In this document: positions 62,102-64,000 of the stretch, in pieces | How the letters are laid out: the number at the start of each line of letters is the position of its first letter | Position numbering within the stretch: the stretch's first letter is position 1 | Origin: Escherichia coli | GTDB lineage: Bacteria > Pseudomonadota > Gammaproteobacteria > Enterobacterales > Enterobacteriaceae | Assembly (NCBI RefSeq): GCF_041248615.1 | Contig: NZ_CP158426.1 | DNA: 64,000 nucleotides | Reading direction: 5' to 3' (one strand) | Program-made: the position numbers and the translations under genes | The notes under the pieces: model-generated | Database searches by the model: none | What the model was told of the DNA's origin: nothing | The model's input: the letters and a program-made list of their open reading frames with translations, nothing else

Positions 62102-62121
62102 AATTTTTAGAATTTGGCTCC
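62102..62121 (-). repeat. inverted partial copy of tRNA-Asn 3' end (distal att repeat of a second asn-tRNA island)
   Basis: aatttggctcctctgactgg is the reverse complement of ccagtcagaggagccaaatt; no tRNA body follows. Confidence 0.75.
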
Positions 62122-62479
62122 TCTGACTGGGATCGCCGTAGCCAATAACTGGCTAATAAATAAGCTAAACCTGAATTTCCTTTCTGTCAAGACCACCAAA
62201 CAGACCACCTTAAGTTATACATGTCATTCTGACCTGCTCTCAGTTGATTAGTACACCCTGAAATTAGTAATGTCATTCATATGACCCTGACCCCAAACCC
62301 TGCTCCATTCAGAAACAGAATTCCGGCATGATACATACTCCCCCTGAACCGAGGTGGTACTGATGAAAAAAATCTCGATTCACCGAAGAGCATATTGTGT
62401 TTGCCTTGACGCAGAAGTTACCAGCATGACTCAACTTCAGCCGACTCAACCACTATCCCAAACCTCTAGGATCAGAAAC

Positions 62480-63718
62480 TGAAGTGATCAACTAAAACTG
62501 GCCACGGCTTTAGAGTTTTTCCAGTATCGGTTTTCCGATTCGTTTGAGGGTAACCCACCATTATAGTCATGCGGCCTTAACGAACTGTAATACTCGACGA
62601 TATAGTCTGTAATCGCATGAGCAGCTTCGCTAAAGTTTGTATAACCAGTCACTGGCACCCACTCGTTTTTCAGACTTCTGAAGAAGCGTTCCATCGGGCT
62701 GTTGTCCCAACAGTTGCCTCGTAGGCCCATACTCTGCCTGATCCGGCAACGCCACAGTAACTGCCTGCTTGTATAGTGGCTACCCTGGTCACTGTGGACC
62801 ACACTTCGGCTGGTTTACCGCGAGCTTCCCACGCCATTTCCAGCGCTTTGATGGTCAGCCTGCTGTCCGGCGAGAATGACATTGCCCAGCCCACCGGTTT
62901 CCTTGCGAACAGATCGAGAACAACTGCCAGGTAAGCCCAACGCTTGCCTGTCCAGATATATGTCACATCACCGCACCTGGTTAGGTTCTGTCACTGTAAA
63001 CTGTCGCTCAAGGCGATTCGGGATAACGATGTGTTCATGACCACCACGTTTATACCGGTGGGTAGGCTGCTGACAACTCACCAGCCCCAGTTCTTTCATG
63101 AGCCTGCCGGCAAGCCAGCGTCCCATTCTGAAGCCTCGCATGGTTGCGATAATCGCGAAGCTTCTTGCGCCAGCAGAGCCATGGCTGATGTTATGCAGTT
63201 CCAGAACCTGACTACGTAACACAGCTCGCCTGCCATCTGGCTTTTTGGGGCTTTTTTCCCAGTATTTGTAGCTGCTTCGATGAACCCCGAACACGTGGCA
63301 GAGTGTGACCACAGGATACTGCGCTCTGAGTTTCCCGATTAACGAGAACTGTTCAGGGAGTCTGACATCAAGAGCGCGGTAGCCTTTTTTAATATGTCGT
63401 TTTCCATTTCAATGCGTTGTAGCTTTTTCTTCAGCTCACGTATTTCAATTTGTTCCGGGGTTATAGGGGAGGCTTTAGGTATTTTCCCTGTCGTTCATCC
63501 CGCAACTGCTTTACCCATCGCGTCATGGTAGAAAGGCCCACATCCATAGCACTGGCCGCAGCTGCAACGGTGTAGTTCTGATCAAGGACCAGTTGAGCGA
63601 ATTCGCGTTTAAACTCTGCACTGAAATTTCTTTTTTTCATTGAGGCACCTGTAATGTTCTGAGGTGAGCATATCACCTCTGTTCAGGTGGCCAAATTTAC
63701 TGTGCCACTACAGTACCA
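62480..63718 (-). mobile_element. IS911-like (IS3 family) insertion sequence, degenerate
   Basis: orfA-like N-terminus [18 protein letters not shown]...[19 protein letters not shown] (63461-63676) truncated by frameshift; orfB-like DDE fragments in three frames (62488-63312); imperfect terminal inverted repeats around tgaagtg...tggccac. Confidence 0.65.
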
Positions 63719-64000
63719 CTTGGTCTGGAGCTAGTGAGCAGAATGTATGACAGTGCTGTATGGCATCTATACAGAATTACGGGCAAAACGATGCCGCGAA
63801 ATGCGGATAGACAGGCTGCTTGTCAGTTATCGGAAGGCGCTTGCGAAAGTTACTGCGCCTGCAATTCCCGCTCTGTACAATCTGAAAAAGGGTAGGGCTT
63901 TGAATGTATGTGAGAATTATAACCCATCAATGCAATCTCCTGCGATTACAGCATCAAAATCAGCATCTTTGATAGCCTCAAAGCAAGCCCCTAATACGGG

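Follow-up and report, generated by a model that had tools for sequence, protein, structure and literature searches.

An insertion-sequence-rich island end beside yeeJ in Escherichia coli NRZ14408 is very probably the attR junction of a yersiniabactin-less integrative and conjugative element

The stretch analysed here is 64,000 nucleotides of the Escherichia coli contig NZ_CP158426.1 (the window, below, means this whole stretch). It spans the his-pdu-cob-asn region of the chromosome, and its last two kilobases run from the region upstream of yeeJ into what is very probably the distal end of an integrative and conjugative element (ICE) inserted in the tRNA gene asnT. The ICE end carries remnants of insertion sequences (ISs). 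Sequence beyond the window was read from the chromosome of E. coli NRZ14408 (NZ_LT599825.1), where the window corresponds to positions 2019672-2083671 and the 2.1 kb around the feature is 100% identical. Positions given without further comment are those of the window. In order, the junction region holds:

61878-62108, no strand: chromosomal spacer between asnT and yeeJ, near-identical to and collinear with K-12 from downstream of asnT to the start of yeeJ.
62109-62130, minus strand: attR core, a direct repeat of 22 bp in which the final 16 nt of tRNA-Asn are followed by 6 nt from downstream; it contains attO.
62131-62213, no strand: conserved terminal arm of the ICE adjoining attR (83 bp), 85% identical to the distal end of the yersiniabactin (ybt)-positive ICE of strain SCEC020023 and 81% to that of the A38 variant.
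62214-62281, no strand: 68-bp stretch between the arm and fragment A, which among 5,426 E. coli genomes matches only 4 records, all with the same ICE end.
62282-62414, plus strand: IS fragment A, 133 bp from the 5' end of an IS3-family element, with left inverted repeat, leader and 17 orfA codons.
62415-62479, no strand: 65-bp spacer between fragment A and element B, matching neither IS A nor IS B.
62480-63712, minus strand: IS element B, full-length (1233 bp), dead, IS911-like, with its right inverted repeat at 62480 and its left at 63712.
63640-63461, minus strand: orfA remnant of element B, from Pfam and alignment.
63312-62968, 62966-62670 and 62802-62488, minus strand: the orfB pieces of element B, from Pfam and alignment.
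63713-64000, plus strand: remnant of a gene whose 5' end is cut by element B; the RefSeq 126-aa 'hypothetical protein' at 63747-64127 runs past the window end.
64072-64254 (window-equivalent, beyond the window end), minus strand: fragment C, a third IS3-family piece of about 180 bp, with the 5' end and first orfA codons (MGTPRFTPEF...).

The boundary itself is fixed by a repeat that both ends of the ICE share. This 22-bp sequence, AGAATTTGGCTCCTCTGACTGG, includes at 62114-62130 on the minus strand the 17-bp sequence CCAGTCAGAGGAGCCAA, which is the published 17-bp attO of ICEs of the high-pathogenicity island (HPI) type (PMC2801613). Five exact copies of attO occur in the window, three of them at the 3' ends of tRNA-Asn genes and the others at 47810-47826 and at 62114-62130, against zero expected from 100 shuffles. 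An exact copy of the complete 22-bp repeat lies 51.7 kb away at the 3' end of an intact asnT (record positions 2133527-2133602, minus strand), which is flanked by mtfA and by a tyrosine integrase gene. When the reverse complement of 61800-62200 was aligned with K-12, which has the empty site, the match ran from the start of yeeJ through the last 16 nt of asnT and was followed by complete divergence; the chromosomal backbone restarts to the left of the att copy, from 62108 leftward. The junction therefore falls exactly at the att copy, and the repeat at both ends, taken with the intact asnT and the integrase, gives the classical attL/attR layout of a tRNA-integrating element.

The initial annotation, made from the letters of the window alone, had recorded an inverted att copy at this place and taken it for the distal end of a second asn-tRNA island that continues past the window. 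The att copy is the attR core at 62109-62130, matched by the repeat at the intact asnT, and about 50 kb more of ICE follows position 64000. Extension beyond 64 kb, which had been proposed as a check together with a search for an integrase and an intact tRNA-Asn at the far end, led through a 51.7-kb ICE and not ordinary backbone; the element closes at an integrase and the intact asnT beside mtfA, again with the 22-bp repeat. The att repeats, the empty-site junction and the extent of the ICE thus uphold the distal end of a second island. We consider it very probable that an ICE of the asn-tDNA family (which includes ICEEc1 and ICEKp1), 51.7 kb long and inserted in asnT of NRZ14408, has its attR junction and the distal edge of its cargo in this region; within this reading the att repeats, the empty-site junction, the ICE extent, the synteny of the backbone, the identities and lesions of the ISs, the breakpoints and the occurrence of the same end at another asn tRNA gene were all directly observed.

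The gene content between the repeats, taken from RefSeq and read from the integrase end, begins with the integrase, two porins, an HTH regulator, a FecCD-type ABC importer, an MFS transporter and AmiA. It continues with AlpA, DUF2857, TraR/DksA, a full VirB1-VirB11 set with EexN, Cag12 and TrbM, the coupling protein and MobC. Beyond MobC lies an intact IS3-family element, followed by HchA, enzymes of the GH16 and GT32 families, an integrase fragment, ArdC and a LysR regulator. Nearest the distal end are UbiD, UbiX and DUF554, then a four-gene operon and finally the IS-rich end described above. Pfam matches were obtained for AlpA and the coupling protein. The integrase itself is a 423-aa protein of the tyrosine type (Pfam Arm-DNA-bind_3, Phage_int_M and Phage_integrase) and is 82% identical in amino acids to the HPI integrase that lies beside ybtS at asnT in an ST131 genome.

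These features align the element with the HPI-ICE family, known from ICEEc1 of E. coli ECOR31, ICEKp1 of K. pneumoniae and HPI-ICEEh1 of E. hormaechei (PMC2801613). In the E. coli genome set alone, asn-tDNA ICEs amount to about 200 chromosomal copies. Shared with that family are integration at the 3' end of an asn tRNA gene, the 17-bp attO, the order AlpA, DUF2857, TraR, VirB1-11, coupling protein, MobC and ArdC, the attR-side arm, the similarity of the integrase at 82%, the use of more than one asn tRNA gene and a variable cargo region at the distal end. The genes for the type IV secretion system (T4SS) and mobilisation stand in the same order as in the ybt-positive ICE of SCEC020023, where they adjoin fyuA, ybtE and irp1; that ICE has 77% nucleotide identity over 65% of a 15.7-kb T4SS query. 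The first 20 nt of the terminal arm agree at 16 of 20 positions with the published flank of HPI-ICEEh1 (PMC2801613). The NRZ14408 element differs from the family in that it has no yersiniabactin locus, in that its backbone is only about 77% identical over the 65% that aligns, in the length of its identical repeat (22 bp), and in its distal cargo, which consists of a Lamassu operon with UbiD/UbiX, GT32/GH16 and HchA. The annotation between the att sites shows none of the ybt, irp and fyuA genes, and other cargo occupies that position. Lacking the yersiniabactin locus, the element is not an HPI; it is an uncharacterised, ybt-less member of a well-known ICE family.

In the integrase-proximal position of ybt (local extract 22660-31830) stand the two porins, AmiA, the MFS transporter, the FecCD-type ABC importer with a substrate-binding protein, and the HTH regulator. 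This set of porin, AmiA, MFS and FecCD genes may be an alternative metal or siderophore uptake module.

With respect to how the end arose, a P4-type tyrosine integrase would have recombined the attachment site of the ICE with the 3' end of the tRNA gene. Such a recombination would rebuild an intact asnT at the integrase end and leave at the far end a 22-bp partial copy of the tRNA, followed by the conserved arm.

Inward of the arm lies the part of the ICE that varies. Directly after fragment C, at window-equivalent positions of about 64390-70380 and thus beyond the window, are the four genes of a Lamassu operon. All four are near full-length PADLOC matches: LmuA (MBL-fold hydrolase, 7e-125), LmuA (trypsin-like protease, ABC-3C CTD4, 1e-122), LmuC (2e-44) and LmuB (SMC-like ATPase, 2e-269); Pfam finds CTD4, MComp1, SMC_N and AAA_23 among them. 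In Pfam naming Lamassu is ABC-3C, and the NRZ14408 operon corresponds to the variant with an MBL-fold hydrolase and a protease effector. Lamassu is common on integrative elements (bioRxiv 10.64898/2026.01.13.699239). The GC content of the cassette is about 0.29-0.40, as against about 0.46-0.51 in the IS debris on its left and 0.43-0.47 past its right end.

Comparison with the ICE of A38, a 96%-related variant, shows homology only at the att arm and again only after LmuB, so that a block of 8.7 kb has been exchanged; in A38 its place is taken by genes for a restriction endonuclease and an AAA ATPase, together with an IS fragment. The ICE of A38, which comes from a wallaby isolate, has an additional cluster next to its integrase end (local extract 43216-49086) that looks like a set for small-molecule biosynthesis: an AfsA-related hotdog protein, an acyl carrier protein and a ketoacyl-ACP synthase are encoded there, as are a HAD hydrolase, an MFS transporter and a split transketolase.

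In all five backbone variants examined, the attR-ardC interval holds defence-type genes, and these differ from one variant to the next. The NRZ14408 type has Lamassu. A38 combines a restriction endonuclease and an AAA ATPase with a nuclease/helicase pair, and SCEC020023 combines an ABC-3C set with retron Eco8. In 2022H047 a CHAT protein occurs together with a nuclease/helicase pair and a Hachiman HamA set, and 23GD35035 has a ubiquitin-like system (a multiubiquitin/ThiF/protease set). In four of the five, genes or fragments of the IS3 family occur within the interval or next to it.

Taken together, these observations suggest a variable slot of about 8.7 kb just inward of the arm, into which IS3-family elements would have landed and in which they would then have decayed, A being cut to 133 bp, B killed and C reduced to about 180 bp, while the low-GC Lamassu operon would be the functional cargo. 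The order of these events is one that we infer, as is any part of IS activity in delivering or reshuffling the cassette.

Alternatively, the three IS3-family pieces could be the left relic of a composite transposon, or of an IS-bounded cassette, that brought the Lamassu operon into the ICE. The pieces do abut the low-GC cassette, the whole 8.7-kb block is the segment in which the A38 variant differs, and in other variants the defence cargo of this slot is likewise accompanied by IS3-family copies. However, a search of the 52-kb ICE for IS A, B and C turned up no further remnant, whether right of the cassette or elsewhere, the pieces derive from three different ISs in mixed orientation, and no flanking duplications were found, so that we regard this origin as unlikely. 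The missing right-hand remnant, which leaves an origin by composite transposon unsupported, also tells against our own account of the end, as do four further points. No relaxase with a Pfam match was identified in the ICE, the protein annotated as MobC having none. The apparently intact IS3-family element between hchA and mobC (record 2102186-2103414), which has an annotated programmed frameshift and is unrelated at the DNA level to IS A, B and C, may bear on the state of the ICE. An exact-match scan of 37 nt of the ICE arm against the GTDB species-representative genomes gave 0 matches, and hence no donor taxon. Finally, the lack of a target duplication around element B, discussed below, could also be explained by point mutation of a 3-bp repeat.

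The ISs were characterised by alignment to intact relatives. Fragment A begins at the first base of its left inverted repeat, which starts TGACCCTGACCCC, and shares 86-88% identity with the opening 131 bp of intact members of the IS3 family from other E. coli (e.g. HH107). The intact reference is about 1.24 kb long, its orfA starts MKKSRFTEEQIVFALKQ, and its OrfA matches Pfam HTH_Tnp_1 at 1e-22; relative to it, fragment A has a 1-bp insertion of A in an A-run.

Element B is complete in outline, and both of its terminal inverted repeats are intact and align with those of intact relatives. An orfA with an HTH domain, an rve-type orfB in the -1 frame and terminal repeats starting with TG place it in the IS3 family, and its pieces match HTH_Tnp_1 in orfA and HTH_21, rve and rve_3 in orfB, as in IS911. 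Further likenesses to IS911 are the imperfect repeats, which resemble those of the K-12 IS911A piece and of the copy in E. coli 536, an A-rich orfA/orfB overlap that aligns with copies for which RefSeq annotates a programmed frameshift, and an ancestral length of about 1250 bp. In contrast to IS911, element B carries four inactivating deletions and lacks a 3-bp target duplication. One of the deletions, placed against an intact relative, removes 1 bp of orfA at about 63485; the other three fall in orfB and remove 5 bp (about 62968), 1 bp (about 62801) and 9 bp (about 62758). The reading frame of orfA consequently ends after 59 codons, and orfB is split into three pieces.

The identity of element B is 84-90% to the IS911A pieces of K-12 and 85% to the copy of E. 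coli 536, which is the common E. coli copy, whereas its nearest intact relatives, at 94-96%, include plasmid copies from Citrobacter and Enterobacter. Among the individual values are 93.6% to the intact copy of E. coli EH09-18-41 and up to 95.6% to plasmid copies (Enterobacteriaceae, Citrobacter, Enterobacter). ISfinder counts about 95% identity or more as the same IS. At 84-90% to K-12 IS911A, 'IS911-like' is the correct description and 'IS911' is not; the labels in RefSeq and PLSDB go no further than 'IS3 family transposase'.

Much of what the initial annotation had proposed for these ISs survives alignment and Pfam, including the IS assignments as such. The orfA-like start of an IS3-family element that it noted at about 62363 belongs to fragment A, at 62282-62414, with 17 orfA codons aligned to intact elements. 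The degenerate IS911-like element that it drew from about 62480 to 63718 is present, with that type and that start, but ends at 63712; its truncated orfA and its orfB in three frames correspond to the 59 codons and three pieces above. The description of the debris as nested had to be abandoned, the ISs being adjacent: 65 bp of unrelated sequence separates them, IS A does not resume past B, and there is no 3-bp duplication.

Nesting would mean that a complete IS A was split by IS B inserting into its orfA, which would agree with the mere 65 bp between fragment A and element B and with the pile-up of the same three IS types in E. coli HH107. We judge this very unlikely, since similarity to IS A stops at 62414, 65 bp short of IS B, since neither the spacer nor the sequence past 63712 matches IS A, no other part of which exists anywhere in the ICE, and since IS B has no 3-bp duplication. 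A BLAST search at word size 7 with both flanks of B against intact IS A returned nothing past 62414. The pile in HH107 (local extract 4900-5010) is truly nested: a 35-bp piece of the IS C leader lies between the left end of IS911 and the left repeat of an intact IS A, the IS911 is itself split by IS30, and 38 bp there are identical to part of the NRZ14408 ICE end (local extract 22292-22329).

The flanks of element B bear on its history, not on its membership of the family. They read AAC on one side and GTA on the other, whereas those of intact relatives are duplicated (CCC/CCC in EH09-18-41, GTG/GTG in E. coli 536). To the right of B, positions 63713-64005 are 82% identical to the N-terminal part of a 169-aa open reading frame (ORF) on the E. 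coli IncFIA plasmid NZ_CP024236.1, and this homology begins precisely at the boundary of IS B. The 65-bp left flank showed no similarity to the plasmid by Smith-Waterman alignment (score 14 against a shuffle mean of 15.3, with 407 of 500 shuffles at least equal). A simple insertion of IS B into plasmid-like sequence is thus unsupported, the left flank being unlike the upstream region of the plasmid. Because IS B joins two unrelated sequences without a target duplication, it probably forms a rearrangement junction and, judging by these flanks, would mark an IS-mediated deletion or a recombination between copies and not a simple insertion.

The 126-aa ORF that RefSeq annotates at 63747 as a hypothetical protein stays open along the aligned part in the plasmid homologue as well as in the window, with in-frame stops just after the junction in the window copy. 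Substitutions between the two fall 19/14/18 on the three codon positions, without third-position bias; no Pfam or PADLOC match was found for the ORF, and its 3' end overlaps fragment C antisense. Since its 5' end is cut by B and followed by stops, since substitutions are even across codon positions, and given the lack of a family match and the antisense overlap, it is best read as a putative gene remnant, not a gene. Strain P470 has an intact copy with which fragment C shares 92% identity. The likeness to the P470 copy extends about 40 bp past the apparent terminal repeat; either IS C is longer than placed here or a specific target was used.

The same ICE is present in a second site. In strains 2018-06-4CC (Viet Nam) and YF-1 (China) it lies in asnV, between ldtA and nac, with the integrase again adjoining the intact tRNA gene, and its identity to the NRZ14408 ICE is 99.7% at the distal end and 99.8% in the T4SS region. 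Both copies share the arm, fragment A, the dead IS B and the downstream remnant, and 62125-62482 is 100% identical. In 2018-06-4CC the protease gene of the Lamassu operon is split by ISApl1. An ICE end with this debris was found in only three strains (four records) among 5,426 complete E. coli genomes. The debris shared at asnT and asnV shows that it belongs to the ICE and predates its spread. The ICE, on this comparison of sequences, is probably still transfer-proficient, by excision and conjugation.

It might instead be supposed that the debris is a strain-specific chromosomal insertion, gained after the island integrated and lying outside the mobile element. IS3-family copies are plentiful in this genome, the record having 8 places that match the query. 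This is nevertheless highly improbable: two unrelated strains, one from Viet Nam and one from China, whose ICE is in asnV have the arm, fragment A, dead IS B and remnant with 99.7-100% identity, and a structure shared at two integration sites contradicts a gain confined to one strain. The proposal that the 22-mer, to which the tRNA contributes just 16 nt, is a mere decayed tRNA pseudogene fragment or chance repeat without an island boundary can be dismissed with near certainty, being contradicted by a chance expectation of zero for attO matches, by the K-12 empty site, which aligns to the 22-mer and diverges past it, and by the matching repeat, intact tRNA and integrase 51.7 kb away.

The rest of the window holds three tRNA-Asn genes, named here from their neighbouring genes:

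32965-33040, minus strand: asnV.
35374-35449, minus strand: asnU.
37198-37273, plus strand: asnW.

A first asn-tRNA island occupies 37198-47826, with attO at 37258-37274 (the 3' end of asnW) and at 47810-47826, about 10.5 kb apart; its cargo comprises a frameshifted integrase (37435-38696), an RHS core protein (about 42735-46916) and a TPR protein. The yeeJ homologue at 53837-61802 (minus strand) encodes an inverse autotransporter adhesin with Ig-like repeats and is frameshifted according to RefSeq; the 1702-aa ORF at 56769-61877 (minus strand) is merely its N-terminal portion. Rfam gave zero matches at E up to 1 over 61500-64000, and a promoter and terminator scan over the junction found promoter-like sites at the level of chance (3 seen, 3.5 expected), none of them assignable.

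In summary, the analysis places exactly the right boundary of this ICE, a rare relative of the yersiniabactin ICEs that lacks ybt; in itself this has little significance beyond correct annotation. It also shows that no fewer than two of the four asn tRNA genes serve the ICE as insertion sites. The lead of wider interest is the recurrent but differing defence cargo in the attR-proximal slot. We suggest tentatively, as a possibility somewhat short of an even prospect, that the interval between attR and ardC might be a dedicated, fast-turnover slot for anti-phage and anti-plasmid systems, with IS3-family copies as its footprints and possibly its vehicles, and that the ybt-less ICE might be chiefly a carrier of defence and metabolic functions.

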